A DNA stretch of 64,000 nt from an uncultured bacterium (lineage in GTDB: Bacteria > Bipolaricaulota > Bipolaricaulia > RBG-16-55-9 > DRJF01), in assembly GCA_913053845.1 (NCBI GenBank), contig CAJXGD010000005.1:2239-66238 (forward strand), given 5' to 3'. Within the stretch, counting starts at the first letter, position 1; each line of letters starts with the position of its first letter. A program made the translations under genes and the position numbers. Below, piece by piece: positions 27,776 through 52,497 of the stretch. The notes under the pieces are model-generated. The model was not told where the DNA came from. It saw nothing but the letters and a program-made list of their open reading frames with translations, and ran no database searches.

Positions 27776-30559
27776 CTAAAAAGAGCCGGACCAGCGCAGA
27801 TAGAGCTGCGGGCCGGGCTGCCCCAGCCCCTGAGCCAGCCCCAAGCGCAAGCTGAGCGGCAGAGAGCGCTCTAAAATGAATCCCAGGCGCAGTTCGCCCC
27901 CCCAACTGACCCTCAGCCGGCTTAGATCGATCCGGTCGGCGGCGCTGCCGACGGTCAAGAAAAGCGCACCGGAGAGTTTGTCCAGGAACAGTGGCCAGAG
28001 ACCCAGACCACGCTCGATGGCCAGCAGCGGGAAGCTGTATTCCAGCTTGCCCCAGAGCAACTGCTTTCCCCTCAGCAACCCCGAAGGAAAGCCGGGCAAG
28101 GCATAAGGACCGTCGGTGCCACCCAGTTGAAAAGCCCCGGGCAGGTCGCTCCAGCCGGCCACCAAGTGTGTAATCAGCGCCTGCCGGGGCATGCCAGGCA
28201 GGCGCACCTGCTCCTGCCAATCCAACAGAACCCGGCGTGCCGCCGTTTGCACCCCGGAGCCGGTCGCCCGGGACCAGCCCCATTGGCCGGAGAGCGAGAT
28301 ATTCACCGAGTCGCGCCACAGGCCCAGCCCCTGCTGGGCCGAGTATTTCCAAGAGCCGAAGAGTTGCTGCTGGCTCTCTCCTGGTGAAGTGGAGCGGCGA
28401 TAGCCCAACTTCACCGTCTGGCGCCTGGTCAGCTCCACGACTAGGGGCCAGCTCAGCGCCAGCGAGGTATGGCTGCTGAGCAGATCGCCGCCGGCCTGCA
28501 AAGCCAACGTGGCTCCCAGTTGGGAGTTGAGGTAGCTCAGCTCGAAGAAGGGCGATGCCCGCCGCCAGGCGTAGCCGAGCTGCAAGCGGAAGCGTTGCTC
28601 ATCCAGCGCATCTTGGCCCCAGGTGAAGAGGCCCAGCCGACCGGCCGCCGGATCGAGCCAGGGCAGCCAGAGCTTGGGCAATAGCGAGGGGATCGGATTG
28701 TAGGGCCGGATAGGCCAGGATAGCTGGGGATAGCCGGGCCAAGGGGAGATATGCTCATAGTGCTGCTCCACCGGCGTCCAAGATTGAGGATCATAGGGCA
28801 TGAGGCGCAGATCATAGCCGGAGGCCGAATAAGCCACGAAGGCGATGTTCACCCCGTCGGGGGAGACGGCCGGAGCGAAGGCCCCGCCAAAGGAGCGGGT
28901 CACCCGGAAGAGCCGGGCGTCGGCAATCCGATAGGCATAGAGATCATAGCCGCCAGACCGATCGGAGCTGAAGAGCACGTAGCGCCCGTCGGCCGAAAAA
29001 CTGGGGTCCAGATCGGTGGCCCGGTCGCGGGTCGCCGACCAGAGCAGGCGGCCGTCCCTGCTGAGCAGATAGATATCTTGATAGCCACCCCACTGCCAGA
29101 GGGAGAGGGCGATCGTCTGACCATCGGGCGAGATGGCCAGGGACTCGATGGTAGCCTGGCCACCCAGTTCGAGCAGGATCTGGCGACTATGGCTCACCAG
29201 ATCATAGACGATCAGTGAGCTGCCCGGCCCGGCTTGCCCGGGCAGATAGCTATCATCGTCGCGGGCGATCAGCAGATGCCGTCCGTCGGGGAAAGGAGCC
29301 ACGGCGTAGGCCCGCTCGCCGGTGGTCAGTCGTCTCTCCTGCCGGGTGACCAGATCATAGCTATAGAGATCATAGAAAAGATAGTAGCGCTTAAAGATAC
29401 CCAGCTTGGGATAAATCAGGGTAGGGTGAGCCTGGTGCGGCAACCAGGCGGGCGCCGCGAACCTGCCGGATAGCAGGGCTATATCATGCTGGCCTGCCGA
29501 GTCCACCAGGCGCAGGCCGGCAGTCCGTGCCGGGTCGCTGTGCCGATAGACCAGCGTTTTCCCATCCGGTGACCAGGCCGGCGCCCCGCTCCAGTGACCC
29601 AGATGGGTCAGCGCCCGACTGGGCGTCTCGCCGCCCGCTGCTTGCAGCGCTCGCCGAAAGGCCTTCATCTGGGCTTCACTCCAGTCCTGAAAGCCTCGAT
29701 AGAGCTTTTCTGGCTTGACGCCGGTCACACCTCTCAGAGCCTGGCCGAAGTCGCTCAAGAAGCCCAGGGAGAGCAGGGCGGGCAGGTTCTCGGCTTGGGC
29801 CGTGTCCAGGCGGGCCAAGCTGTCCCGCCCGTAGCGTTCGCCCAGATAGCGCAGCAGCCAAGGGCCCAGATCTTGGGCGAGGATGTCGGACGGGGGCCAC
29901 TCCTGCCGGCGATAATATGTCCCCAGTTGGGCCAGCGTCGGCCAGCGGCCCGATTGGGTCAGCAGGCGCAGGATCATCGCCGTGCGCGGATCATCGGCGC
30001 GCGAGTGGCCAGATTTCAGAAAAACCCCATAGTCGGGGATGCCCTCGCGCCAGACGGTGGGTTTGAAGGCGTTGGGCGCTACGATCGAGCCGAAGACGGC
30101 CCTAAGATAGCGGGCGAAGCCCTGAACGCCACTTAGATCAACGATGTGGCCGTACTCCAGGGTGATCAGCCGCTCCGGCCAAGCGGAGAAGCGGGAGCCC
30201 GTCCGGCGGCTCGCGTCCCAGGCGGCCAGGTAGATTACGATGGTGTTGCCAGGCAGGATGCTAGCGTAGCCGGCGCTAAAATCGCTGGCATCGGCCAGCA
30301 CGATATTGGTCCTGCCCGGCGGCACATAGGCCAGCTCAGCGGTCCAGAATTTATAAGCCCTCTCGGCGATCTGAGCCGCCTCGCGCGCCGGGCCGGCCAG
30401 GCCGGTGTGATAGCTGACCCAGAAGTGCGGCGTCTCCAGCGTCTGCCAGGAGAGCTGGGGATCGAAGGGCAGCGGCTGCGCCTGAGAGGCCAGGGCGATG
30501 AGCAGCAGGCCGACCAATGCCAAGCCCATCCCTCGGAGCAGCTGCTTGTAAGAGCGCAT
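27776..30559 (-). CDS. Paralog of the HExxH-PD40-barrel protein with a degenerate peptidase motif (cassette 2)
   Basis: Start placed at ATG 30559 (MRSYKQLLRGMGLALVGLLLIALASQAQP), preceded by a GGAGGAGG RBS. The longer ORF reaching 30850 is Arg/Gly-rich read-through. About 35 % identity to cassette 1 over the N-terminal domain. Same PD40 repeats and barrel end …YLRWSGSF. The HExxH position reads LEYGH. Confidence 0.7.
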   Translation of the reverse strand: MRSYKQLLRGMGLALVGLLLIALASQAQPLPFDPQLSWQTLETPHFWVSYHTGLAGPAREAAQIAERAYKFWTAELAYVPPGRTNIVLADASDFSAGYASILPGNTIVIYLAAWDASRRTGSRFSAWPERLITLEYGHIVDLSGVQGFARYLRAVFGSIVAPNAFKPTVWREGIPDYGVFLKSGHSRADDPRTAMILRLLTQSGRWPTLAQLGTYYRRQEWPPSDILAQDLGPWLLRYLGERYGRDSLARLDTAQAENLPALLSLGFLSDFGQALRGVTGVKPEKLYRGFQDWSEAQMKAFRRALQAAGGETPSRALTHLGHWSGAPAWSPDGKTLVYRHSDPARTAGLRLVDSAGQHDIALLSGRFAAPAWLPHQAHPTLIYPKLGIFKRYYLFYDLYSYDLVTRQERRLTTGERAYAVAPFPDGRHLLIARDDDSYLPGQAGPGSSLIVYDLVSHSRQILLELGGQATIESLAISPDGQTIALSLWQWGGYQDIYLLSRDGRLLWSATRDRATDLDPSFSADGRYVLFSSDRSGGYDLYAYRIADARLFRVTRSFGGAFAPAVSPDGVNIAFVAYSASGYDLRLMPYDPQSWTPVEQHYEHISPWPGYPQLSWPIRPYNPIPSLLPKLWLPWLDPAAGRLGLFTWGQDALDEQRFRLQLGYAWRRASPFFELSYLNSQLGATLALQAGGDLLSSHTSLALSWPLVVELTRRQTVKLGYRRSTSPGESQQQLFGSWKYSAQQGLGLWRDSVNISLSGQWGWSRATGSGVQTAARRVLLDWQEQVRLPGMPRQALITHLVAGWSDLPGAFQLGGTDGPYALPGFPSGLLRGKQLLWGKLEYSFPLLAIERGLGLWPLFLDKLSGALFLTVGSAADRIDLSRLRVSWGGELRLGFILERSLPLSLRLGLAQGLGQPGPQLYLRWSGSF

Positions 30560-39556: not shown

Positions 39557-40666
39557 ATGGACGAGGCAAGTCGGGTACCCCTCGGTCCCCAGGTTGAGGG
39601 CGAGCCGATCAACGGGCAAGAGACGACGGATGAGCTGATCGCCAAGGCTTTTCAAGCCTTCGTGGGCCGCGAGCTGGCCAGCGGCTACCGGATCATCAGG
39701 CGCATGATCGCTGAAGACCATACCATCGTGCTGACGCTCTCCGGGGCGATGACCCCGGCCAACCTGGCGGCCACCTCGGTCATCCCCCTGATCCGGGCCG
39801 GCCTGGTAGACCTGATCAGCACCACCGGTGCCAATATCTATCATGACCTGCAGCGGCTGATCCAGGGAGAGTTTTACACCATTGACCCCAACTTCGGCGA
39901 TCGCCGGCTGCGCCAAGAGGGCTACACCCGCATCTATGACCTGGTCTTCCGCGAGGAGGATCTTTATCGGACCGACCGCTTCGTCTCCGAATTATTGCAA
40001 AAAGAACCCTTTCAGCAGCGGATGACCACCCCACAGTTTCACGATTTATTGGGGCGGTATGTCAGCCGGATCGAGCAGCAGCGCTTCGGGCGAGACCCGT
40101 ATAACTCCAAAAGCCTGGTCGTACAGGCCCATCTCCACCGGGTACCCATCTTCTGCGGCGCTCCGCAGGACGGCTCGATCTATCTCAACGTGGCGCTGCT
40201 GCAGCGTCGGCTGCGCGAGCGATTCCGCTTCGACCTCGACCTGGCTGGAGATATCCATGAGTTCGCCGCTTACCACTATCTGGCCAAGGCGCGCTGGTCC
40301 CAGCAGCTCAGCATCGTCATTCTGGGGGGCGGGGTGCCCAAGAACTATGCCTTGCAGCCTGAGCCCTATCTCTCCCAGATCTGCGGCCTGGAGGTGGGAG
40401 GCTACGACTGCGACGTGCAGATCTGCGATGCGCATGTCCAAGACGGGGGGCTGAGCTCTTGCACCGCCGGCGAGGCGCACACCTGGGGCAAGACCAGCGC
40501 CGAGTTTCAGGTCAACTCGCAGTACGTCTTCGCTGATGTGACCGCCGTCTTCCCCTGGATGGTCCACGGGTTGCTTCAGGCAGGGCTGAAGAAAAACCCG
40601 CGCCGCTTGCTGGAGCTGCGCGAGCAGGCCCTGCAAGCTCTGGACGGCGCCCTGGGACTGGAGTAG
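39557..40666 (+). CDS. Deoxyhypusine synthase-like (homospermidine synthase-like) protein
   Basis: ATG 39557 after a GGGGAGG RBS. …IVLTLSGAMTPANLAATSVIPLIRAGLVDLISTTGANIYHDL. DHS-family fold. Confidence 0.75.
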   Translation: MDEASRVPLGPQVEGEPINGQETTDELIAKAFQAFVGRELASGYRIIRRMIAEDHTIVLTLSGAMTPANLAATSVIPLIRAGLVDLISTTGANIYHDLQRLIQGEFYTIDPNFGDRRLRQEGYTRIYDLVFREEDLYRTDRFVSELLQKEPFQQRMTTPQFHDLLGRYVSRIEQQRFGRDPYNSKSLVVQAHLHRVPIFCGAPQDGSIYLNVALLQRRLRERFRFDLDLAGDIHEFAAYHYLAKARWSQQLSIVILGGGVPKNYALQPEPYLSQICGLEVGGYDCDVQICDAHVQDGGLSSCTAGEAHTWGKTSAEFQVNSQYVFADVTAVFPWMVHGLLQAGLKKNPRRLLELREQALQALDGALGLE

Positions 40667-40704
40667 GGGCACGGCGCGCCGTGCCCCTACATCAAGGAGG
40701 TCCT

Positions 40705-42268: not shown

Positions 42269-43204
42269 GTGAGTGAGAATATGTTTAGCCCTGATATACT
42301 AATAGCAGAAAGATTCGATCCGAGTGAGCGCGTGGTGCTCCACCGGGGGAGTTGTCTGGAGCTATTGCGGGAGATACCAAGCAGGTCGATGCAATTAATC
42401 GTCACCTCGCCACCTTACAACATTGGCAAAGAGTACGAGCGAAAACTCAAAATAGAGACCTATCTTGAGCAACAGGCTCAAATAATCAGCGAGTGTGTGC
42501 GGGTGCTCTCCGATAGAGGGAGCATCTGCTGGCAGGTTGGCAACTATGTAAGCAATGGGACTATTATTCCGCTTGATACCGTCCTATATCCGATATTCGA
42601 CAGCTTGCACCTGGTGATGAGGAACAGGATTATCTGGCATTTTGAACATGGTCTTCATTGTTCTAAAAGGTTCTCCGGGCGCTATGAGACAATCAGTTGG
42701 TTCACTAGGAGAACTAAGGATTATGTTTTTAACCTCGATACTATTAGAGTACCACAGAAGTATCCGGCAAAGAAATACTTCAAAGGCCCAAAGGCAGGGC
42801 AGTATTCCTGCAATCCTCTGGGTAAGAATCCGGGTGATGTTTGGAACATACCGAACGTGAAAAACAATCACGTGGAAAAGACGGAACACCCCTGCCAATA
42901 CCCGGTAGAATTGATCGAACGACTGGTATTGGCAATGACCAATGAAGGTGATTGGGTCTTCGACCCGTTCCTGGGCACAGGGACCTCAATCATAGCTGCA
43001 ATGCTGCATAACCGGCGGGGTGCCGGTGCAGAAATAGAAGATAAATACGTTGATATAGCTAGAGATAGAATACGACGAGCCATTGACGGAACGTTAAGAA
43101 CCAGGCCTATGAATAGAGCCATATATGATCCCAAATTACCTGGTCAGGGACTGAAAGGCGATACCATTGCCGTGCCCCTGGTGATTGTCGGTATGGACAC
43201 CTAA
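42269..43204 (+). CDS. Beta-class DNA amino-methyltransferase (SPPY motif; N4-cytosine or N6-adenine), orphan, in a low-GC segment
   Basis: Motif IV LIVTSPPYNIGKEY precedes motif I DPFLGTGTS (beta-class order). The local GC is visibly lower than the flanks. No restriction endonuclease gene is adjacent. Confidence 0.8.
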   Translation: MSENMFSPDILIAERFDPSERVVLHRGSCLELLREIPSRSMQLIVTSPPYNIGKEYERKLKIETYLEQQAQIISECVRVLSDRGSICWQVGNYVSNGTIIPLDTVLYPIFDSLHLVMRNRIIWHFEHGLHCSKRFSGRYETISWFTRRTKDYVFNLDTIRVPQKYPAKKYFKGPKAGQYSCNPLGKNPGDVWNIPNVKNNHVEKTEHPCQYPVELIERLVLAMTNEGDWVFDPFLGTGTSIIAAMLHNRRGAGAEIEDKYVDIARDRIRRAIDGTLRTRPMNRAIYDPKLPGQGLKGDTIAVPLVIVGMDT

Positions 43205-43790: not shown

Positions 43791-44374
43791 GAGCCCCTCC
43801 TGGGTGGCAAGAGAATGCGACCAGCGGCGTTGGTGATGACCAGCCCATCGTCGCCGAAGTTGTCCTCCCCAGTGTAGCCCGAATCATCCCCGAAGCGGGC
43901 CTCGATGAAGTAGACCTTGCCGCTGGCAGCGAAGCTGCGTTGGTACGGAGGCCGTGAGCTACCCATCACGGAAATACTCAGGGTGACTTGCTGCTTTTGG
44001 CGCTTGAAACTGATCGTGAAGCCGGCCAAGGCACGCCGGGTTCTGTCGTTAAGTGAGCCGGGGTAGAGCTGATAAGCCGCTCGCGCGTAGGGCGTGCTGG
44101 AGAGCAGCGGACCCAGGCGTACAGCCTGAGCGGATTGAGGCGCAGCAGGAGTGCTCTTCGCTTTGGGCTGAGGCCGGGTGCCGGGCTGCGAATCGCCCGG
44201 TGCGCTCGCCGCGCTGGCCTGTGGCTGCGGGTCGGTCAAGCTGCTCTGTAGGCTCAAAGAATGGTTATTCAAGCCCCATAACCCCAGCGACAGGGCGATC
44301 AAAGCCGAAGCCCCCAACGCCACCAGCCCCCGCAGGCCAATTGTTTCTTTATTGTGATGAGTTTTCTTCATCAT
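43787..44374 (-). CDS. Hypothetical membrane-anchored/secreted protein
   Basis: 195 aa with an N-terminal hydrophobic segment and a Pro/Gln/Ala-rich linker. Confidence 0.35.
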   Translation of the reverse strand: MMKKTHHNKETIGLRGLVALGASALIALSLGLWGLNNHSLSLQSSLTDPQPQASAASAPGDSQPGTRPQPKAKSTPAAPQSAQAVRLGPLLSSTPYARAAYQLYPGSLNDRTRRALAGFTISFKRQKQQVTLSISVMGSSRPPYQRSFAASGKVYFIEARFGDDSGYTGEDNFGDDGLVITNAAGRILLPPRRGS

Positions 44375-44452
44375 CGGATCACGATTCCTTTTGCTTACAT
44401 GGGGGATTATAGCCGGCCGAGATGAACGGAAGATGAATGACGGCCAGCGGAT

Positions 44453-45877
44453 TCAGTGTGACCGGGTCGCCGTCCGGTAAAGTGGCAAACGGACCGTGAA
44501 AATGGTCCCTTCGCCCGGTGTGCTCTCCACCTCAATCTGACCTTGATGCACCCGTACGATCTCACGGACGATCGCCAGCCCTAGGCCGGTGCCCCCGGTG
44601 CGCTGCTGGGAACGAGCCTGGTCGGCGCGGTAGAAACGCTCGAAGACATGTGACAGCTCTTCAGCCGGGATACCCAGCCCGGTGTCGGCCACGCTCAGCC
44701 GGGCTCGGTCGCCCTGGAGCTCCAGGCTCAGCCGCACCTGCCCCCCTGGCTGCGTATACTGGATCGCGTTGTCCAGCAGATTCGCGATCATGCGGCGCAA
44801 TAGCAGCGGATCGCCATAGACAACCGGTCTCTTGGCACAGGCGACCTCTAGCGTGATTTGCCGCTGCTCCGCCAAGGTTTTGATCTCGCCGGCGATCTCG
44901 GCGCAGAGCTGAGCCAGTTCGATCGGTTGAAAATCAGGCTGCCATTTGCCGGAGTCGGCGCGCGCCAAGAGCAGCAGCTCTTGAACCAAGCGAGAGAGCC
45001 GTTCGGCTTGCCCCAAGCTGGTCTCTAACACCTGACGGTACTCCTGGGCCGAGCGTCGCCGGCGCAGCGCCACCTCCAGTTGGCCACGCAGCACCGTCAG
45101 CGGGGTGCGCAGCTCGTGGGAGGCGTCGGAGACGAAGCGCTTCTGCTGCTCAAAAGCCCGCTGCAAACGCCCGAACATCCGATTGAACGTCCCGGCCAAT
45201 TGGCCGATCTCATCCTCTGGGTTGGCAACAGGCAGACGCTCGGAAAGACTGCGCTCACCGATGCTCTCCGCGGTCTGTGCCATGGTCTTGAGCGGTCGGA
45301 GCAGGCGGTCGGCCAGAAAGAAGCTTCCCAGACTGGAGAGCAACAGCAGAGTGGGCGCGATAATCAACAACCAAAAGCGGAGCCTTCCTAAGGTGCTCTC
45401 GACCCGTTTGAGGGAGATTCCCACCTGGACCAACAAGCCGGCTGAGGTGCCATCGCCGGTGTCCACCACTGTCAACAATCTTAGCGGTGGACCCTGGCCA
45501 ACCGAGACTGTCGCCAAGCTGCCGGCAGGACCGTCCTTCAGGGCTTGCGCACGGATTGTCGCGTTAAGCGGCAGGCGCTTTTTCCCCAGGTTGGCCGATC
45601 GTGCTAAGATGTTCCCTCCCAGGTCGCTAAGCTGAATCAAGAGATCCGCCGCGCTAAAGTCATTCTCTTCTTGAGGGAAATTCCATCGCCCTGCCTCGAA
45701 ATCAAGCCCGCTGTTGATCTCTGCGGCCTTGGAGAGCAAGGTCATGTCTACTCCCCGGTAGAGGCTGTCGGCCACGGTGGAGAAGAGGATAAGACTGAAG
45801 GCGGTGATGAGCAGAGCGGTTACCAGCAGATGCCAAGACATGATCCTGGCGCGAATCGATCTAAACATCAGGGACAT
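44453..45877 (-). CDS. Sensor histidine kinase (2 TM, HAMP, HisKA, HATPase_c)
   Basis: H-box SHELRTPL. N-box LLDNAIQYT. G boxes DTGLGI and GGTGLGLAIV. Confidence 0.85.
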   Translation of the reverse strand: MSLMFRSIRARIMSWHLLVTALLITAFSLILFSTVADSLYRGVDMTLLSKAAEINSGLDFEAGRWNFPQEENDFSAADLLIQLSDLGGNILARSANLGKKRLPLNATIRAQALKDGPAGSLATVSVGQGPPLRLLTVVDTGDGTSAGLLVQVGISLKRVESTLGRLRFWLLIIAPTLLLLSSLGSFFLADRLLRPLKTMAQTAESIGERSLSERLPVANPEDEIGQLAGTFNRMFGRLQRAFEQQKRFVSDASHELRTPLTVLRGQLEVALRRRRSAQEYRQVLETSLGQAERLSRLVQELLLLARADSGKWQPDFQPIELAQLCAEIAGEIKTLAEQRQITLEVACAKRPVVYGDPLLLRRMIANLLDNAIQYTQPGGQVRLSLELQGDRARLSVADTGLGIPAEELSHVFERFYRADQARSQQRTGGTGLGLAIVREIVRVHQGQIEVESTPGEGTIFTVRLPLYRTATRSH

Positions 45878-45878
45878 C
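45822..45878. repeat. 57-bp direct repeat, copy A (RR-stop/HK-start junction sequence, here at the gatD 3' end / HK start)
   Basis: accagcAgatgccaagacatgatcctggcgcgaatCgaTctaaacatcagggacatcc. It matches 48161-48217 at 54 of 57 positions. Confidence 0.8.
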
Positions 45879-46691
45879 CTTCATCGTATCACGACCGCCC
45901 CTCAATGGGCTTCCGTCTCTCTTCTTTATGAGGTGGGCTCCCAGGTACTTGGGGTGAGATTTAAGCGCCAGGCGCAACGCGGCATCATGCGCCTCTGTTT
46001 CCAAGCTGTCGTCCAGCGGGGCGAGCTCAGTGACACCATAGCGGCGATTTAGCGCCTTCTGGAGCAAGAAGTCCGCTAAGACAGGATTTTTCGGTAGCAG
46101 GGCCCCGTGGAGATAGGTGCCGATGGCATTACGATAGATGACACCTTCGGTGTGGTCACGGCCGTTGTTGCCACTACCCCGGCGTCGCACCCGACCAAGC
46201 GGTCGAGCACCCGGCTTGAGGTAGGTACAACCGTTGTGGTTTTCGAAGCCGACTAGCGTCCGGCGCGCGCCGAACAAGTCGGTCTCGACGATGATATTGC
46301 CGATGTAGCGTACGGGCTCCGCTATGGTCTCGACCGGCAAGATGTCGACACCAGGCAAACGGTCACCATCGTTCATCTGATAGTACTCGCCTAAGAGTTG
46401 ATAACCACCGCAGACGGCCAGGGTCGGCAGTCCATCCTCGATGGCCGCTCGTAGCGCAGGTCCCTTGGTTTTGATGAGGTCCTGAACCAGCATTCGTTGC
46501 TGTCTGTCCTGGCCTCCACCGAGGAAAATGATGTCCAAGAGGTCAGGATCGAACGGATCACCCCTGGAGAAAGTGCGCAGCTCCGTGATGATCCCCCGCC
46601 ATTCGGCACGGCGCTGCAAGGTGAGGACGTTGCCTCGGTCGCCGTAGATATCCATCCGGCTAGGAAAGAGCCAAGCGATGGTCAACTTCAC
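45861..46691 (-). CDS. gatD: Lipid II isoglutaminyl synthase, glutamine amidotransferase subunit
   Basis: CobB/CobQ-type GATase: IFLGGGQDRQQ…LAVCGGYQLLG…FENHNGCTY…YLHGALLPKN, closely resembling GatD. Its last residues KDVPDV and stop are encoded by repeat copy A. Confidence 0.8.
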   Translation of the reverse strand: MKLTIAWLFPSRMDIYGDRGNVLTLQRRAEWRGIITELRTFSRGDPFDPDLLDIIFLGGGQDRQQRMLVQDLIKTKGPALRAAIEDGLPTLAVCGGYQLLGEYYQMNDGDRLPGVDILPVETIAEPVRYIGNIIVETDLFGARRTLVGFENHNGCTYLKPGARPLGRVRRRGSGNNGRDHTEGVIYRNAIGTYLHGALLPKNPVLADFLLQKALNRRYGVTELAPLDDSLETEAHDAALRLALKSHPKYLGAHLIKKRDGSPLRGGRDTMKDVPDV

Positions 46692-48089
46692 TTAGCTCTC
46701 CTGCCAAAAAGCGGGCACGTGACCGCTGCGAGCCAGATGGTTGTGCAATGTCAGCAGCGCCGTGTAGGTCGGCAGTATGTAGAGTGAGCTGCCCGCTGGC
46801 AATTGGGCCATTGCGGCCTCCAATGCCGGCACAGGTTTCGGTATGATCGTCACGCGCACCTGATCGATGCCGGCATATTTGAGGCGCAAGGCCACCTCCA
46901 GGGCACGGGTGCCCGACGCGGTGATCGAGACGGCTCGGTCGGACAACAGCTCGAAGTCCACATCCCAGAGCCAAGAGATGTCGTGACCATCTGCATCGTT
47001 ATCATTGACCAGGATAAGCAGATGAGCCTCTTGAGCACTGGTGGCTCGGGTGATCAGCTGTATCACCTGGTTGAAGCTGGCGGGGTTCTTCACCAGGAAG
47101 AGATGCAGTTCATGGTCTCCCAGCAGGATGCGCTCGCCCCGTCCGAAGACGGCTCGGAATTCGCTCAAGGTCTCTGCCACAACCTGCGACGGGATGCCCA
47201 GCGAAAGGGCAGTAGCAGCAGCGGCTAGGGCGTTATAGACGTCGTAGAGACCGGGCAGCGGCAAATGGACCTTCAACTCAGCGGATGGAGAGCCGATGTG
47301 GACCTCGAAGCTTCCTTCCTGGCATGGGACCACCCGATCGGCGAAGACCTGTGGGGTGGGACGAGCCTCGCCGCACTGAGGACAGACATAGATGCCCAGA
47401 TGACTAAAGTAACGCTTCGTGTACTCAAAGGCGGTGCTGCAGCGCCGGCAATCGGTGGCATCTGCCGCATATAGCCCCGTCTCTCCGGCCAGGCAATGAT
47501 CTTCAATGCCATAGAAAAGGGGTGACTGGGCACAATCTCGGGCTAGGTTGGCCACCGTAGGATCGTCGGCGTTGAGGACGGCGCGACTGCCGACGGGCAG
47601 CGCTTGCAGTGCTTGAGCCACACGATCCGTGACTGCATCGAGCTCACCGTAGCGATCAAGCTGGTCGCGAAAGAAGTTGTGAACGATCAGCCGCCGGGGG
47701 CGCAACTGGGCAGAGACACTAGGGGTCCAGGCCTCATCAACCTCGATGATGGCGATGGTATTGCCGTGGCCTGCCAGCCGCGGTAGCTCTAGCAAGGCCG
47801 TGGTCACCCCGCTGGCCATGTTCGCACCCGCACCGTTGCTGACTACCTGCCAACCGATTCGCTGGCAGATGGCAGTTAGCATCCGCGTGGTCGTCGTCTT
47901 CCCGTTGGTGCCCGTGACTACGACCACGCCCTGGGAAGCAAGCGAGGCCAGTTTGCGCATGGCCTGGGGGTCCAGACGCGAGGTGACCGCACCGGGCATG
48001 ACGGTGCCGCCGCCTGTGCCCAGGACCTGCGAGAGCCAGCGGACCAGCCGCCCACTCCCTATCGCCAGTCGCAAGCGAAGATCAATCAT
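46692..48089 (-). CDS. murT: Lipid II isoglutaminyl synthase, Mur-ligase-like subunit
   Basis: GTNGKTTTT P-loop. Cys4 ribbon (CRRCSTAF…CPQCGE). DUF1727-type C-terminal domain (LVNDNDADGHDISWLWD). Confidence 0.85.
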   Translation of the reverse strand: MIDLRLRLAIGSGRLVRWLSQVLGTGGGTVMPGAVTSRLDPQAMRKLASLASQGVVVVTGTNGKTTTTRMLTAICQRIGWQVVSNGAGANMASGVTTALLELPRLAGHGNTIAIIEVDEAWTPSVSAQLRPRRLIVHNFFRDQLDRYGELDAVTDRVAQALQALPVGSRAVLNADDPTVANLARDCAQSPLFYGIEDHCLAGETGLYAADATDCRRCSTAFEYTKRYFSHLGIYVCPQCGEARPTPQVFADRVVPCQEGSFEVHIGSPSAELKVHLPLPGLYDVYNALAAAATALSLGIPSQVVAETLSEFRAVFGRGERILLGDHELHLFLVKNPASFNQVIQLITRATSAQEAHLLILVNDNDADGHDISWLWDVDFELLSDRAVSITASGTRALEVALRLKYAGIDQVRVTIIPKPVPALEAAMAQLPAGSSLYILPTYTALLTLHNHLARSGHVPAFWQES

Positions 48090-48216
48090 GAGATAAAGGA
48101 GGGAGGAGAGCCGGGTGCCGGGCTGGTCGTCGCTCGTCCGGAACCCGGAGCATCGCGGTCACCAGCGGATGCCAAGACATGATCCTGGCGCGAATTGACC
48201 TAAACATCAGGGACAT
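48082..48216 (-). pseudogene. Chimeric leader ORF: histidine-kinase 5' fragment (18 codons) read through into junk, ending across the murT start codon
   Basis: MSLMFRSIRARIMSWHPLV is 16/18 identical to the HK N-terminus. The ORF then continues …TAMLRVPDERRPARHPALLPPLSHD and stops at 48082, 7 nt past the murT ATG. Confidence 0.6.
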
Positions 48217-48217
48217 C
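48161..48217. repeat. 57-bp direct repeat, copy B (original junction at the RR 3' end, carrying an HK 5' fragment)
   Basis: accagcGgatgccaagacatgatcctggcgcgaatTgaCctaaacatcagggacatcc. It encodes the RR C-terminus …IPDVPDV* and, overlapping it, the HK start MSLMFRSIRARIMSWH. Confidence 0.8.
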
Positions 48218-48901
48218 CGGGATCGGGGGATCTTCATCTTGCAATACGTAGCCGACGCCTCGGATGGTGTGCAATAACTTGACTGACGCGCCCTTGTCGA
48301 TCTTTTGCCGCAAGCGGTAGATAAACACATCAATCAGATTGGAAAAGCTGTCGAAATCACCGGCCCAGACGTGCTCACTCAGCTCGGTTCGGGTAATGAC
48401 CCGGTGAGGGTGGCGCATGAAATACTCCAGTACCTCGTACTCCTTCCCGGTCAAGTTGATCTCCCTCCCGCTGCGGCGGACCCGGTGGGTGATCAAATCC
48501 AAGCTCAAGTTAGCTACCTGCAGCAAGCGAGGCTCAGGCTGCGCACCTCGACGCAGCAAGGCCCGCAGGCGCGCCAAGAGCTCTGCGAAGGCAAAGGGCT
48601 TGGTCAGGTAGTCATCGGCACCGTAATCCAAGCCGCGTACCTTGTCCTCTAAAGAGTCTTTGGCGGTCAGAAGCAATACGGGCGTGAGGCGCCCCGCTTG
48701 CCGCAGCTCGCCGAGCATGGTCAAGCCATCTTTCTTGGGCAGCAGGATGTCGAGGATGACCAGATCATACTCGTTCAGTTGAGTGAGAAAAAGCCCCTCC
48801 TCGCCATCGTAGGCGACGTCTACCGCATAATGCTCCTCCTGCAAACCTTGCCGGATGAAGCTGGCCAGCTCAGGCTCATCTTCGACGATCAGGATACGCA
48901 T
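48200..48901 (-). CDS. OmpR-family response regulator
   Basis: MRILIVEDEPEL…DLVILDILLPKKDG…TAKD. Winged-helix C-terminal domain. Confidence 0.85.
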   Translation of the reverse strand: MRILIVEDEPELASFIRQGLQEEHYAVDVAYDGEEGLFLTQLNEYDLVILDILLPKKDGLTMLGELRQAGRLTPVLLLTAKDSLEDKVRGLDYGADDYLTKPFAFAELLARLRALLRRGAQPEPRLLQVANLSLDLITHRVRRSGREINLTGKEYEVLEYFMRHPHRVITRTELSEHVWAGDFDSFSNLIDVFIYRLRQKIDKGASVKLLHTIRGVGYVLQDEDPPIPDVPDV

Positions 48902-48964
48902 AATTTTACCTATACTATGCAATACAATCTAGCCAATCTCAAAGCGACCAAGTATAGCACCCTG

Positions 48965-49456
48965 TTAGGCGCGTTTTTTGCGAAACTGATACTCGCGCCA
49001 AATGAAATACACAACAACGAAATCGAAAATGCTGAGTAACAGCAGGAAAAGAGAATGAGTGTGGGTGAAGCGGTAGAGCATGTAAGCAATGAAGATGCCA
49101 AGAAACCAGAGTGCGGTCGGATATGCCCACAGTCGGTCTCGCAACAAGCCTGCAACCAAAAAGACCTTGATAAGACCGTGCACGAGAAGATAAACGCTCG
49201 CGAAAAGCTGAGTGTCTGATGAAAGGCTTTGCACGGAGTGGCGCAACAAATTGGCAATCAAGTCATGGGGGTCTTCCGATAGCTCATGCGCCGTCAGAAA
49301 GAAAATGGTGGCATTGAGGACCCTAGGGCTCATAAAGAGGAGGAGCGAGCCACCGATGATCTCCAGTATGCCGTCCACGCCCTTAAACAAGACGATAATC
49401 TCAAACAGCCGGTGTGTAGTTTTCTCCTGTGTTGTCCTATTTAGGGGTTGAAACAT
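48965..49456 (-). CDS. DUF2127-type small membrane protein (low-GC segment)
   Basis: Start placed at the internal ATG 49456 (MFQPLNRTT…). Three to four TM helices. The region is clearly lower in GC than the flanks. Confidence 0.45.
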   Translation of the reverse strand: MFQPLNRTTQEKTTHRLFEIIVLFKGVDGILEIIGGSLLLFMSPRVLNATIFFLTAHELSEDPHDLIANLLRHSVQSLSSDTQLFASVYLLVHGLIKVFLVAGLLRDRLWAYPTALWFLGIFIAYMLYRFTHTHSLFLLLLSIFDFVVVYFIWREYQFRKKRA

Positions 49457-49503
49457 ACCTAACACCTGAATACCTGAGTTCAGCGGCGGGTGGTGCTGGC
49501 AGA

Positions 49504-49539
49504 GTGTACTTCGACAAAGAGCCAACTTGCAAACGCCAA
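49504..49539. repeat. 36-bp direct repeat, copy 1 (tgtacttcgacaaagagccaacttgcaaacgccaaa)
   Basis: Matches 50410-50445 at 34 of 36 positions. Confidence 0.7.
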
Positions 49540-49648
49540 ACCAACCAGAGCGCACGAGGGGAGGCCGCGGAGTCTCAAGTCGAGAATCCATCATGGCATC
49601 CCCTCGCGCATTGGCCATCGTTAGGTTAGCGAACGGCTCCTCGCCAGC

Positions 49649-49993
49649 TTAATCTTGCGGGCCGTCCTGTGGACCGTCCGGGCCATCCTTCTGCTGGGTG
49701 TTGTCGGTGTCTGTAGCCGAATCCGGAGCTTCAGTCTTGCTCTCCGATTCAGCCGCCGAATCCGGAGCCTCAGTCTTGCTCTTTGATTCAGTCGCCGACT
49801 CTGGAGCTTCGGTCTCGCTCGCCGCAGCCGTGGCATTGGTCACGTTGGCATTAGCCTGAACCGCTGCTGTCGTTTGCACAGGCGTAGTGCTGGCCGCGAA
49901 CATCTGATGAGAGGCGCTTAGAGCTAGGCCACCCACCAGGAGTAGCGCGGCCATGCCGAAGACCGCGATCAGTGTTCCTTTTCTCATGTTCAA
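49649..49993 (-). CDS. Small secreted acidic tandem-repeat protein
   Basis: Signal peptide MNMRKGTLIAVFGMAALLLVGGLALSA. Contains (SKTEAPDSA/ESA) repeats. Confidence 0.45.
   Translation of the reverse strand: MNMRKGTLIAVFGMAALLLVGGLALSASHQMFAASTTPVQTTAAVQANANVTNATAAASETEAPESATESKSKTEAPDSAAESESKTEAPDSATDTDNTQQKDGPDGPQDGPQD
49716..49830. repeat. About three tandem 36-39-bp DNA repeats inside the secreted-repeat-protein gene
   Basis: gccgaatccggagcttcagtcttgctctccgattca, followed by two imperfect copies. Confidence 0.6.
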
Positions 49994-50208
49994 CTCACCT
50001 CACTTTCGCTGCTAGTTGGGCAGCGAGCCCAGTATAGTAAATCGGAGATGAACCCACGGTGAATCGGAGATGAACATGCAGTCATGGCAATCCGCCATCA
50101 CCGTGGCCTGGCTCCAACTCCTCATGACAAGGCCTCCCGGCGGCGTTGTCCCAGTAAGTCCATTTTACTCAGTCGGCCAGACCTAGTAGTATACTGGCAG
50201 CGCGAGAT

Positions 50209-50401
50209 ATGGACCTACTCAGTTGGATCACCGCGGTCTTCGTCCAATACGGCTATTGGGTTATCTTTTTCGGCGTGATGCTGGAGAACGCTGGCATCCC
50301 TCTGCCGGGCGAGACGGTCCTACTGGCAGCGGCTTTCTTCGCCTGCCAGGGGCACTTCAATCTGGTTATCGTCATCGCTGTGGCTGCCGTAGGCGCAGTG
50401 T
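50209..50401 (+). pseudogene. Duplicated 5' fragment of the dedA gene (first 64 codons plus promoter region), truncated
   Basis: 50164-50401 is about 85-90 % identical to 51146-51382. It encodes MDLLSWITAVFVQYGYWVIFFGVMLENAGIPLPGET…AVGAV, then diverges into the 36-bp repeat copy 2. Confidence 0.6.
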
Positions 50402-50680
50402 TCGCAGACTGTACTTCGACAAAGAGCCCACTTGCAAACGCCAGATCAGTCTCGGCTGCAGCGCGGTCAAGTGCAGCGCCTGGTTAGACATGTAGCTCTG
50501 GTGAGCTTGACCCGACCCCCCGGCTCGAAAGCCGATGTTGAAGGTAAGAAATCCAGGAACGAGTGACAAGCCGATGCTCCTGAGCTCTGTTCGACAACAG
50601 AGGCCGACAATTCGAGCAAGGGGCGAGCCCATTGCTCGTGTGATTCGATTCACCAGACGAGAGTAGGTTTGTGCTTTCAT
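50372..50680 (-). CDS. Hypothetical 103-aa protein
   Basis: ATG 50680 preceded by an AGGAGGTG RBS: MKAQTYSRLVNRITRAMGSPLARIVGLCCRTELRSIGL… No recognised family. Confidence 0.3.
   Translation of the reverse strand: MKAQTYSRLVNRITRAMGSPLARIVGLCCRTELRSIGLSLVPGFLTFNIGFRAGGSGQAHQSYMSNQALHLTALQPRLIWRLQVGSLSKYSLRTLRLRQPQR
50410..50445. repeat. 36-bp direct repeat, copy 2
   Basis: tgtacttcgacaaagagcccacttgcaaacgccaga. Confidence 0.7.
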
Positions 50681-50831
50681 AGAAGCACCTCCTTTCTCGA
50701 TCCTAGGAATCGGGTCCGACTCGGGGGTCGAGTCCAGTTCACCAATGCAACTTTGCTCCACACTTTGCATGCGTAACGTTACCTTCAGCGGAGCAGGCGC
50801 GCAAGCGACTGCGTCCGTGGATAGAGGCACA

Positions 50832-50912
50832 ATGAACAAACGCCCCAAGAAGCTTCTCAACCGGGTCCGCGACCCGATCCGCCTCAAACACTACGTCGCG
50901 GCATCGACGTAA
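50832..50912 (+). pseudogene. 27-codon remnant resembling the N-terminus of an integron-type tyrosine recombinase
   Basis: MNKRPKKLLNRVRDPIRLKHYVAAST*. The block LLxRVRDxIRLKHY matches the conserved start LLDxVRDxIRxxHYSxRTE of IntI-like integrases. It is interrupted after HY. Confidence 0.35.
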
Positions 50913-51189
50913 AATCAAGCACTCAAGGCCTATAGAGGGCAAGCCGCTCTCCCAGGTGGCCCATCCGCCCCGCCCACTTGAGCCATATCCATAGGTTGTG
51001 TAACATCACCGCGATCCCCAGCAGTAGCAAGCGCAGCCCCACCCGCCGCTACGCAGTGCGTGCTCGTGCCTGTTCCTACACCCGGTGGTTGCTCTCGATC
51101 CCGAACCGCCTGCGGTACTTTCCCCCCAAGTGAGTGCAAGAAAGTTCTTTACTCAGTCAGCTAGCCCTGGTATACTGGCGGCGCGAGAT

Positions 51190-52497
51190 ATGGATCTACT
51201 CAGTTGGATCACTGCGGCCTTTGTCCAGTACGGCTATTGGGTCGTCTTCTTAGGTGTCATGCTGGAGAACGCCGGCATCCCCTTGCCGGGGGAGACGATC
51301 CTGCTGGCGGCGGCTTTCTTCGCCTACCAGGGGCACTTCAATCTGGTTATCGTCATCGCTGTGGCCGCCGTAGGCGCAGTGCTCGGTGACAACGCCGGCT
51401 ACTGGATCGGTCGCCGCGGCGGGAGATCGCTGCTCGAGCGCTACGGAGGTTATCTGCTCCTGAACGCGAAGCGACTAGCTGGCTTGGAGCGCTTTTTCGA
51501 GCGTTACGGCGCCAAGGCGGTCTTCTTCGCCCGCTTCGTCACTGGATTTCGCGTCTTTACCGCCCTCTTCGCCGGAGCCGGGCAGATGCCCTGGCCGAAG
51601 TTTGTGTTCTATAATGCCGCCGGTGCGCTCATCTGGAGCATTACCATGGGGTCCTTGGGCTATCTTTTCGGCTACAGCTGGGAGGCACTGGCCCATTGGC
51701 TGGGGCGTGGCAGCTTGGTCGCCGGGGCGGCGCTGCTGCTCATCTTTGCGCTTGTCTGGATTCGCCGTCGCCTGCCGGCCTGGCAACGTGCACTCGATGG
51801 CTGGCTGCCCCGCACCCTGGGCCTGCGCGAGCTGCTGATCAGCTTCGCCACTCTGCTCAGCTTGGGGCTCTTCTCCAAAGTAGCTCAGGACGTGGCAGCC
51901 AACGAGTCGCAGCGCTTCGACCTGACTATCTTACAGACCATCCACCGGGATCTGCCCGCTGGTTGGGAGTCGCTGATGAAGGCCATCACTGCTCTGGGGT
52001 CGTTTAAAAATCTCGGCGGACTTTTGATCATCATCCTGCTAGTCCTGCTCTGGCGGCGGCGCTGGAGGATCGCGCGATTTCTGGCCGTCACCGGTCTGCT
52101 CACCCCAGTTTTTATCGAGGGGCTCAAGCTGGCTTTCCATCGGGCTCGTCCCCATCTCTGGCCCGCACCATTCGAAGCTTCGTACAGCTTTCCCTCTGGC
52201 CACGCGCTGGGCTCGCTGGTCATCTACGGTGTGCTGGCCTATCTGGTCGACAAGACCTGGCCGCGCTGGCGGCCGGCCATCTGGAGCGTCTACCTGGTGC
52301 TGGTGTTGACGATCGGCTTCAGCCGACTATATCTGGGTGTGCACTGGCCTACCGACATCTTGGGTGGTTGGGCCGCCGGAGGACTGCTGCTCTTCGGGCT
52401 GATCTACTGGCGCGAGGGACGCTATCGCCTGCCGGCGCTGGTTTGGCTTGAGCTGCGCAAGTTGTGGAACCGAGTAGGGACGAATAGCCGTAGCTGA
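51190..52497 (+). CDS. DedA (VTT/SNARE-associated) domain fused to a PAP2 phosphatase domain
   Basis: Start placed at ATG 51190 (MDLLSWITAAFVQYGYW…), 36 codons into the longer ORF from 51085. N-terminal DedA segment (…DNAGYWIGRRGG…). C-terminal PAP2 motifs KLAFHRARP…SFPSGHA…SRLYLGVHWPTD. Confidence 0.8.
   Translation: MDLLSWITAAFVQYGYWVVFLGVMLENAGIPLPGETILLAAAFFAYQGHFNLVIVIAVAAVGAVLGDNAGYWIGRRGGRSLLERYGGYLLLNAKRLAGLERFFERYGAKAVFFARFVTGFRVFTALFAGAGQMPWPKFVFYNAAGALIWSITMGSLGYLFGYSWEALAHWLGRGSLVAGAALLLIFALVWIRRRLPAWQRALDGWLPRTLGLRELLISFATLLSLGLFSKVAQDVAANESQRFDLTILQTIHRDLPAGWESLMKAITALGSFKNLGGLLIIILLVLLWRRRWRIARFLAVTGLLTPVFIEGLKLAFHRARPHLWPAPFEASYSFPSGHALGSLVIYGVLAYLVDKTWPRWRPAIWSVYLVLVLTIGFSRLYLGVHWPTDILGGWAAGGLLLFGLIYWREGRYRLPALVWLELRKLWNRVGTNSRS

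Follow-up and report, generated by a model that had tools for sequence, protein, structure and literature searches.

A murT-gatD pair bracketed by a duplicated stop/start junction inside a response-regulator/histidine-kinase operon of an uncultured Bipolaricaulota bacterium

Results

A duplicated regulator/kinase junction brackets murT and gatD

By analyzing a 64-kb window of DNA from an uncultured bacterium of the Bipolaricaulota (the 64,000 nucleotides from 2,239 to 66,238 of contig CAJXGD010000005.1, assembly GCA_913053845.1), we found a murT-gatD pair lodged between the genes of an OmpR-type response regulator and a CopS/CztS-type sensor histidine kinase, in a segment of 2.27 kb bracketed by a direct repeat. 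All coordinates are those of this window, and all operon genes are on its minus strand (Table 1). The reading that we favour, at a probability of roughly 80%, is that a murT-gatD segment (2.27 kb with short flanks) was inserted at the stop/start overlap of a CopRS/CusRS-like operon with re-copying of the junction, and that the operon is now one coupled unit. The insertion took place in the common ancestor of a small 'Candidatus Fraserbacteria' clade made up of the window genome and the relatives that we call L070, L083 and L084, and it left a target of 70-71 nucleotides (nt) re-copied, with one copy after the regulator and one before the kinase. The proteins are ordinary members of known families; the unusual part is their placement between regulator and kinase with a preserved scar.

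Table 1. Features of the operon and of the neighbouring rearrangement in the 64-kb window (aa, amino acids; ORF, open reading frame; HK', truncated histidine kinase).
Feature	Position	Strand	Description	Evidence
Sensor histidine kinase	44453-45868	-	471 aa from the conserved second ATG; alternative ATG at 45877	Pfam
Repeat copy A	45809-45879	-	final codons and stop of GatD, working kinase start and kinase codons 1-20	
GatD-like glutaminase subunit	45861-46691	-	276 aa	Pfam GATase_3 (PF07685) 1.6e-38
MurT-like Mur-ligase subunit	46692-48089	-	465 aa	Pfam Mur_ligase_M (PF08245) 1.9e-21, MurT_C (PF08353, DUF1727) 2e-31
HK' stub ORF	48082-48207	-	41 codons (MFRSIRARIMSWHPLVTAMLRVPDERRPARHPALLPPLSHD*), 20 kinase-derived and 21 spacer-derived	
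Spacer	48090-48147	-	58 nt from the repeat to the MurT ATG, arrived with the insert; pyrimidine-rich (CTCTCCTCCCTCCTTT)	
Repeat copy B	48148-48218	-	last 5 codons and stop of the regulator, overlapping kinase-type start ATGTTTAG, 20 kinase N-terminal codons	
Response regulator	48200-48901	-	233 aa, OmpR type (receiver and winged-helix), ends ...IPDVPDV*	Pfam Response_reg 8.8e-30, Trans_reg_C 4.4e-26
Promoter-like site	48914-48942	-	TTGAGA-17-CATAGT, just upstream of the regulator	consensus match; identical in L070
X1	49493-49543		in the DUF2127 gene	
Y1	50148-50409		pseudo-copy (262 nt) of the DedA-PAP2 5' end	86-88% identical
X2	50398-50448		51-nt copy of X1 (DUF2127 gene, 900 nt away)	joined to Y1 with 6-11 nt overlap
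Q	50449-51133		685 nt of unrelated DNA	
Y2	51134-51390		real start of the DedA-PAP2 gene	

A repeat search of the window returned the direct repeat as 78 nt at 88% identity (45809-45886 and 48148-48225), and blastn of the window against itself as 71 nt with 65 of 71 positions identical (91.5%, E=7e-22). The longest exact word in common within 44000-50000 measures 28 nt, compared to at most 16 nt in 100 shuffles. Together with the blastn E-value, this excludes chance and establishes the repeat as real. A preliminary description of the locus had reported 54 identities over a 57-nt core (45822-45878 and 48161-48217), a count that we reproduced, and the self-comparison that it suggested extends the repeat 13 nt further into the kinase, that is to 20 kinase codons.

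Each repeat copy can be read in two frames. First, GAT GTC CCT GAT GTT TAG (DVPDV*) corresponds to the final five codons and stop of the regulator. Second, ATG TTT AGR TCR ATT CGC GCC AGG ATC ATG TCT TGG CAT ... CTG CTC corresponds to kinase codons 1-20, the start of which overlaps the regulator-type stop in ATGTTTAG. The duplicated target comprises 11 nt 5' of the kinase ATG in addition to these 20 codons, and its edges at the insert read GCTCTGCTC (up to the border) and GATGTCCC (from the border on). On the minus strand, the regulator end of copy B overlaps MSLMFRSIRARIMSWH, and in copy A the GatD end ...MKDVPDV* overlaps the start of the full-length kinase. The content that the preliminary description had assigned to the two copies, a regulator end overlapping a kinase start in copy B and the end of gatD with the working kinase start in copy A, was thereby borne out in the window, and the Pfam matches to Mur_ligase_M, MurT_C and GATase_3 show that MurT-like and GatD-like proteins are encoded between them. 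Kinase homologues start with MLKSIRARL or VLKSIRARI and the window equivalent is the second ATG (MFRSIRARI); therefore we take this ATG, with its 8-nt overlap, as the true kinase start.

The inserted genes belong to the MurT/GatD family

The two Pfam scores of the MurT-like subunit both exceed the gathering scores. Its alignment with Streptococcus pneumoniae MurT (6FQB_A) runs across residues 4-453 (1.3e-67) and keeps the P-loop GTNGKT, the four zinc-ribbon cysteines (CRRC...CPQC) and the NDNDADGHDISWLWDVDFE motif. In the published structures, the Asp of the DxxADGxDxSWxWD motif completes the GatD active site. GatD starts with a GTG right after the MurT TAA, with GGAGAG 5 nt upstream, and matches Staphylococcus aureus GatD (6GS2_A) at 3.6e-51; the catalytic C94 (CGGYQLLG) and H195 (YLHG) are invariant across 15 homologues and align to 6GS2_A. 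The conserved core of GatD stops near residue 245 and is followed by an unconserved tail of 30 residues, the final five codons and stop of which (DVPDV*) come from copy A. An identical GatD is found in the metagenome-assembled genome (MAG) GCA_011052375.1, labelled 'Candidatus Fraserbacteria bacterium' at NCBI.

Both proteins scored below the NCBIfam equivalog cut-offs, with 263 and 238 bits compared to 800 for MurT (NF045635/NF052464), and 191 and 204 bits compared to 400/450 for GatD (NF045636/NF052463). These models are tuned to particular clades and still outscored all others by far, so that the scores lower the certainty of exact equivalence and not that of family membership. By sequence, the two proteins are MurT/GatD family members, and the same lipid II D-iso-glutamate amidation activity is probable. 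Their likeness to the lipid II isoglutaminyl synthase of S. aureus (SA1708/SA1707, 6GS2) and S. pneumoniae (6FQB) covers the full length, the domain set, the P-loop, the zinc-ribbon cysteines, the DxxADGxDxSWxWD motif, the GatD Cys/His residues and the adjacent murT-then-gatD order. In Streptomyces coelicolor and S. aureus, murT-gatD is a stand-alone two-gene unit (PMC6001138), whereas the pair of the window sits inside a regulator-kinase operon and its GatD tail ends in five regulator-derived codons.

The flanking genes resemble heavy-metal two-component systems. The kinase (transmembrane segment, periplasmic domain, transmembrane segment, HAMP, HisKA and HATPase_c) reaches 326.1 bits on TIGR01386 (cztS/silS/copS), above the cut-off of 292.55, and the top NCBIfam match of the regulator is TIGR01387 (cztR/silR/copR) with 261.7 bits, slightly below the cut-off of 279.2. 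The 8-nt overlap also resembles the regulator/kinase overlaps of relatives. The window operon differs from CopRS/CusRS/CztRS operons in that 2.3 kb of biosynthetic genes interrupt it and in that it holds a dead 5' kinase stub. Genes near the two-component pair vary among relatives and include a P-type ATPase, an ArsB-like permease and a cupredoxin-like protein, which is suggestive at most of a response of the sensor system to metal (copper, silver or other).

Relatives without the insert indicate that the insertion is derived

We compared the contigs of a graded series of kinase relatives obtained by protein search, in which none fell between 67% and 96% identity. L070 (kinase 96%) shows the same five-ORF layout. 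As anticipated in the preliminary description, the regulator-kinase pair also exists without the insert: regulator and kinase are adjacent in relatives at 67% (L071), 62% (L072), 57% (L073, L074), 52% (L075-77) and 46% (L085) kinase identity. The overlaps are mostly 4-8 nt (GTGCTTAA, ATGTTAA), with no murT-gatD between the two genes in these seven outgroup lineages. The three close lineages (about 95-96% nt identity) carry both insert and repeat, the structure being found in L070, L083, L084 and the DRJF MAG, which are independent assemblies from other samples. Since the outgroups are empty and the close lineages share insert and repeat, the insertion is derived and older than the three lineages that share it. 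Moreover, the kinase N-terminus that is truncated in copy B is conserved in the outgroups; the stub being a truncated copy of it, the junction predates the insert and was duplicated. The closest relatives of the inserted genes (GatD 70%, L078-L081; MurT 56%, L082) belong to murT-gatD pairs that stand alone in unrelated surroundings. Together, these data uphold the derived gene-pair insertion that the preliminary description called a fossil of junction duplication.

The opposite polarity would make the regulator-murT-gatD-kinase order ancestral and the adjacent pairs products of a later loss through recombination of the two direct repeats. Deletion between 70-nt repeats is mechanistically easy and scarless and regenerates a perfect junction; L083 seems to have lost, or never gained, a neighbouring block (Y1-X2-Q, see below) likewise, and in L072 the regulator-kinase pair has a divergent gatD two genes upstream. 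However, a truncated kinase N-terminus within the repeat only arises by duplicating an existing regulator-kinase junction, and 0-2 of 70 sites differed between the ancestral copies, compared to 33-54% protein divergence for the outgroup kinases. In addition, the seven outgroup lineages and the wider family are without the insert, and the closest murT-gatD homologues stand alone. We consider this alternative very improbable and largely refuted.

The gatD of L072 corresponds to the C-terminal part of a GatD-family protein (L072 3-371) on the same strand as the regulator, and is separated from it by a cupredoxin-like gene and an unknown gene. As a donor of the insert it was rejected: it is about 47% identical to every GatD homologue tested, including that of the window. 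That it lies near the same sensor system may be more than chance and gives a weak hint of an older association.

Further searches were negative. The contig scan with the kinase returned relatives of at most 40% identity and no close genome, the invariant 21-mer of the repeat had 0 matches when JGI metagenomes were scanned for it, and no close empty-site relative (70-95% kinase identity) was found in the protein search or the scans.

Transposition usually leaves flanking direct repeats as its signature, and a low-GC DNA methyltransferase gene lies 2.6 kb downstream, as might be expected if murT-gatD had travelled on a transposon, an integron-like or a site-specific element and the repeat were its target-site duplication or attachment site. 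Yet 71 nt far exceeds the target duplications made by transposases (2-15 bp), the borders lack terminal inverted repeats, no integrase, transposase or recombinase was found among the neighbouring genes in the window, and what is repeated is plain coding DNA of the target operon rather than the end of an element. Also, the compositional test for foreignness was negative, insert (58-65% GC) and surroundings having the same GC content. A mobile cassette is in our opinion hardly credible.

A chimeric contig joined through the shared 70-nt sequence, or a binning error, is less credible still, to the point of being negligible. It could be argued from the DRJF MAG, which breaks inside the operon (its contig starts 30 nt before gatD), and from L070, which has scaffold-gap duplications elsewhere, but gene order and both junctions recur in L070, L083 and L084, from different samples and assemblers and at 4-5% divergence, and each repeat copy carries lineage-specific substitutions. 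The L070 duplications are 100% identical blocks flanking scaffold gaps (L070 4837-5160 and 5320-5643; 5106-5160 and 5261-5315), and an apparent 91-aa HATPase_c gene in L070 was discarded as a spurious product of this scaffolding artefact.

The inner joints differ among lineages and the insertion is probably of intermediate age

L083 and L084, which come from two other samples, have the regulator-stub-MurT-GatD-kinase order and both repeat copies, but both inner joints differ from those of the window. First, the spacer between stub and MurT is 26 nt shorter; the stub is open over 31 codons and ends in a canonical ATGA overlap with the MurT ATG. Second, GatD has 253 aa and its own TAG, followed by about 109 nt of non-coding sequence and then by the GAGGGGCGGTCGTGATACGATGAAG/GATGTCCC border as in the window. 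At this GatD-kinase joint they have an AT-rich segment of 86 nt where the window and L070 have 38 nt, and it is these 38 nt that hold GatD in frame to the regulator-derived stop.

The three lineages are equidistant in the DUF2127 gene plus regulator (24/22/19 private differences) and in MurT (40/32/24). In the kinase, the window and L083 are sisters, with 28 private differences in L070 compared to 5 and 8. Comparing window 45027-45904 with L083 4908-5785, the kinase is 98.5% identical and regulator-MurT-GatD 95.3%, while L070 is about 96% identical throughout. Since the kinase tree and identity differ from those of regulator-MurT-GatD, we conclude that strains underwent homologous recombination with a boundary at the GatD/kinase joint. 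With the lineages equidistant and the kinase tree altered by recombination, either state of the GatD tail and of the 26-nt indel may be the ancestral one.

Copy A is identical in L070, L083 and L084, and the window has two derived synonymous changes in it. Copy B differs from the ancestral copy A at 4 (window), 2 (L070) and 4 (L083) sites, two of them common to the window and L083. It follows that, at the time the three lineages parted (synonymous divergence, dS, about 0.11), the copies differed at 0-2 of their 70 sites. Unless the copies were homogenised by gene conversion, these counts place the insertion before the radiation of the three lineages and long after the divergence from the 67% outgroup.

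The similarity of the copies could also be functional, the repeat being kept as an RNA structure or a regulator-binding site before MurT and the kinase rather than as a passive scar. The first 48 nt of the B copies hold only 1-2 of roughly 8 lineage-specific changes, a 21-nt stretch (GCCAGGATCATGTCTTGGCAT) with a potential 8-bp hairpin is unchanged in 8 of 8 copies, and for each of the three spacer variants a 9-bp pairing of the stub start with the MurT start is predicted. The numbers are small, however: in the 21-mer, about 2.4 changes would be expected (P about 0.09, our own estimate). Moreover, the initial 19 nt of B encode the regulator, fold energies do not stand out from those of shuffles, and gene conversion would produce the same pattern. 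We therefore regard a functional repeat as unlikely.

Selection was estimated from the comparison of the window with L070. The ratio of non-synonymous to synonymous rates (dN/dS) was 0.05 for the regulator, 0.20 for MurT, 0.17 for the GatD core and 0.18 for the kinase. For the stub ORF it was 0.61, and the GatD tail showed 5 non-synonymous and 0 synonymous changes. This indicates that MurT, GatD and the kinase are under purifying selection and that both inserted enzymes are functional at their present site, while neither the drifting stub nor the GatD tail is conserved at the protein level.

A kinase-derived stub may couple MurT to the regulator

ORFs are back to back or overlapping throughout the unit in the window. 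The stub TGA (48082-48084), within ATGATTGA, overlaps the MurT ATG. The stub is open and ends at the MurT ATG in all four genomes despite the 26-nt indel, through ATGATTGA in the window and L070 and through ATGA in L083 and L084. The spacer contains no Shine-Dalgarno-like motif, and MurT is without a purine-rich ribosome-binding motif in any lineage. We infer that the stub serves as a translational-coupling ORF for MurT. The 9-bp pairing, which includes G-U, would form between AGGUCAAUU, right after the stub start (48195-48205), and GAUUGAUCU at the MurT start (48079-48089); it is not significant.

The preliminary description had considered translational coupling intact at both ends of the insert, and this stands in part. 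At the 5' side, coupling would run via the 41-codon stub and not directly from regulator to MurT. At the 3' side it applies to the window and L070 and not to L083 and L084, where GatD has its own stop and the 109-nt gap follows. Since it is absent there, GatD-kinase coupling is not required; it is either a secondary repair or was secondarily lost in L083/L084. GAAGGA is present 8 nt 5' of the kinase ATG in all lineages, so that the kinase could initiate independently.

The five-ORF unit has no candidate promoter other than the promoter-like site upstream of the regulator. When internal promoters and terminators were sought between the operon genes, matches were at chance level only, with no terminator-like site on the coding strand.

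Re-copying of the target suggests a template-switch route

Another rearrangement lies 1.3 kb upstream of the regulator (49493-51390), with the layout X1-P-Y1/X2-Q-Y2. Q and its small ORFs have no Pfam match. L083 and L084 have a single Y followed directly by P and are without the roughly 985-nt Y1-X2-Q block. This event matches the murT-gatD event in architecture, and all three non-paralogous direct repeats of the window fall in 45.8-51.4 kb.

In humans, an insert flanked by a re-copied target and accompanied by a short piece templated nearby is the pattern of fork stalling and template switching or microhomology-mediated break-induced replication (FoSTeS/MMBIR; PMC5120786). Here the target is re-copied at murT-gatD, and the neighbouring event has a 51-nt piece templated from 900 nt away with an overlap of 6-11 nt at the joint. 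Since the neighbouring event combines a re-copied target flanking an insert with a piece templated from nearby, we favour a template-switch route.

Before the insertion, the junction GATGTCCCTGATGTTTAGGTCGATT would have been present once. According to the template-switch route, a replication or repair fork would have copied the operon through the junction to kinase codon 20, switched template to a murT-gatD donor and copied it, and then switched back 71 nt upstream of its exit point, in a FoSTeS/MMBIR-type event.

The end product would be equally compatible with a transient tandem duplication of the operon, the redundant interior of which (the rest of the kinase and most of the regulator) was replaced by murT-gatD through two illegitimate joins, so that the 71 nt would be the remnant of a larger duplication. 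This history yields exactly what is observed, insertion into a duplicated operon would be free of fitness cost at each step, and the neighbouring Y-end/X-start joint is a classic novel joint of a tandem duplication. Yet three events are needed compared to one, and the neighbouring units P and Q are unrelated, unlike the prediction of a simple tandem duplication. Furthermore, local alignments of the inner insert edges to the regulator and the kinase were no better than shuffles (p=0.98 and 0.72), the latter value applying to the spacer against the kinase continuation, and no decayed trace of either gene remains inside the borders. The borders are sharp, neither inner edge continues the regulator or the kinase, and a repeat that was once longer was rejected on the ground of these alignments. 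We hold replacement within a duplicated operon as possible, although we do not expect it. The mechanism, as far as we infer it from the sequence, is best described as target re-copying in a replicative or duplication-based rearrangement.

Regarding its working, a single transcript from the promoter upstream of the regulator would carry regulator, HK' stub, MurT, GatD and kinase. Ribosomes that end the regulator would restart at the stub, which ends on the MurT ATG and would feed them to a MurT start devoid of a Shine-Dalgarno sequence. GatD would follow directly after the MurT stop, and in the window the GatD stop would lead to the overlapping kinase start through the duplicated junction. The level of the lipid II D-iso-glutamate amidation enzyme would then be tied to the expression, and probably the autoregulation, of an envelope- or metal-type sensor system.

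Several observations weigh against re-copying into one coupled unit. First, regarding the insertion, gene conversion between the copies could make the event seem younger than it is, and such conversion may be visible in copy B of L070, which matches copy A at two positions where the window and L083 have another state in common. Second, regarding the unit, GatD is not coupled to the kinase in L083/L084, and co-transcription, autoregulation and coupling are deduced from gene spacing alone. Promoter-like matches in the region are no more frequent than in shuffles. The openness of the stub is weakly significant, since with such short spacers every frame gives a stop or a fusion from the MurT start context, and RNA folds from regulator stop to MurT start were no stabler than shuffles in the three variants (z = -0.9, +1.7, -0.3).

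Discussion

Insertions within operons are much rarer than additions at their ends, and their mechanism "remains unclear" (Price, Arkin & Alm 2006, PMC1480536). The murT-gatD locus shares with the operon remodelling described there that native-looking genes were inserted inside an existing operon and that canonical overlaps were created; it differs in that the scar of the event is still readable. Non-transposon genes that moved and are bracketed by target-homologous repeats of >30 bp are known from Arabidopsis, where direct repeats derived from the target surround transposed genes (Woodhouse et al. 2010, PMC2869330), and from human template-switch insertions, the flanking duplications of which are small (PMC5120786). 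These cases are eukaryotic, however, and other intermediates have been proposed for them (circles; FoSTeS/MMBIR). Our literature search turned up no case in bacteria in which genes inserted into an operon are bracketed by a duplicated stop/start junction, which is weak evidence of novelty.

Extra DNA in a two-component junction is found in Mycobacterium tuberculosis, where mycobacterial interspersed repetitive units (MIRUs) lie in the senX3-regX3 intergenic region (PMC4213456). As in the window, short ORFs bridge both genes, but MIRUs are dispersed repeats of 53-77 bp, not a junction duplication, and carry no cargo genes. The small ORFs of MIRUs reportedly overlap the flanking genes (Supply et al. 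1997). A link between a cell-envelope two-component system and murT-gatD expression is also found in Enterococcus faecalis, in which the CroRS regulon includes murT and gatD (PMC10952268). There the link acts in trans on a separate locus, whereas in the window the genes lie inside the sensor system's own operon.

How genes enter the interior of an operon without polar damage is poorly understood. The locus is a rare natural record of such an entry without breakage, with its 71-nt scar, and not a new kind of system; outgroups in the empty state, three sister lineages with tinkering at the joints and a polymorphic neighbouring event make the mechanism testable. A further prediction from the locus is that D-iso-glutamate amidation of the peptidoglycan is linked to a two-component sensor in an uncultured candidate phylum. 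More generally, junction re-copying might be an operon-safe way of gene entry, with the stub exapted as a coupling ORF for MurT and amidation an output gated by the sensor kinase. We find this extension rather doubtful; if true, both flanking genes would keep their native translation signals and amidation would be conditional rather than housekeeping. In Gram-positive pathogens, D-iso-glutamate amidation affects cross-linking as well as lysozyme and antibiotic resistance.

Neighbouring genes and other features of the window

One ORF (51085-52497, plus strand) that fuses a DedA/VTT domain to a PAP2 phosphatase domain is divergent from the DUF2127-regulator-murT-gatD-kinase unit. DedA and PAP2 domains are both linked to undecaprenyl-phosphate recycling, and with this ORF beside the unit the neighbourhood as a whole looks cell-envelope-related. 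By homology with L083, the true start of the ORF is probably an internal methionine (MDLLSW...). Directly upstream of the DUF2127 gene, a small protein with a signal-like N-terminus, rich in Ser/Glu/Ala/Thr, is encoded at 49649-49993 (minus strand), with three 39-nt tandem repeats at 49699-49815. Its L083 orthologue has 125 aa and a different repeat number, and we predict a length-variable surface or secreted protein.

The N6/N4 DNA methyltransferase gene downstream of the operon (42269-43204, plus strand) has 45-48% GC amid 60-65% GC and was probably acquired horizontally. Elsewhere in the window, two PD40/beta-propeller paralogues (959 and 1024 aa) share 64% DNA identity over 500 nt (24020-24508 and 28662-29150). 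Finally, a perfect 28-nt palindrome (40663-40690) between the genes of a deoxyhypusine-synthase-like protein and an aldehyde dehydrogenase may be a terminator or a protein-binding site.

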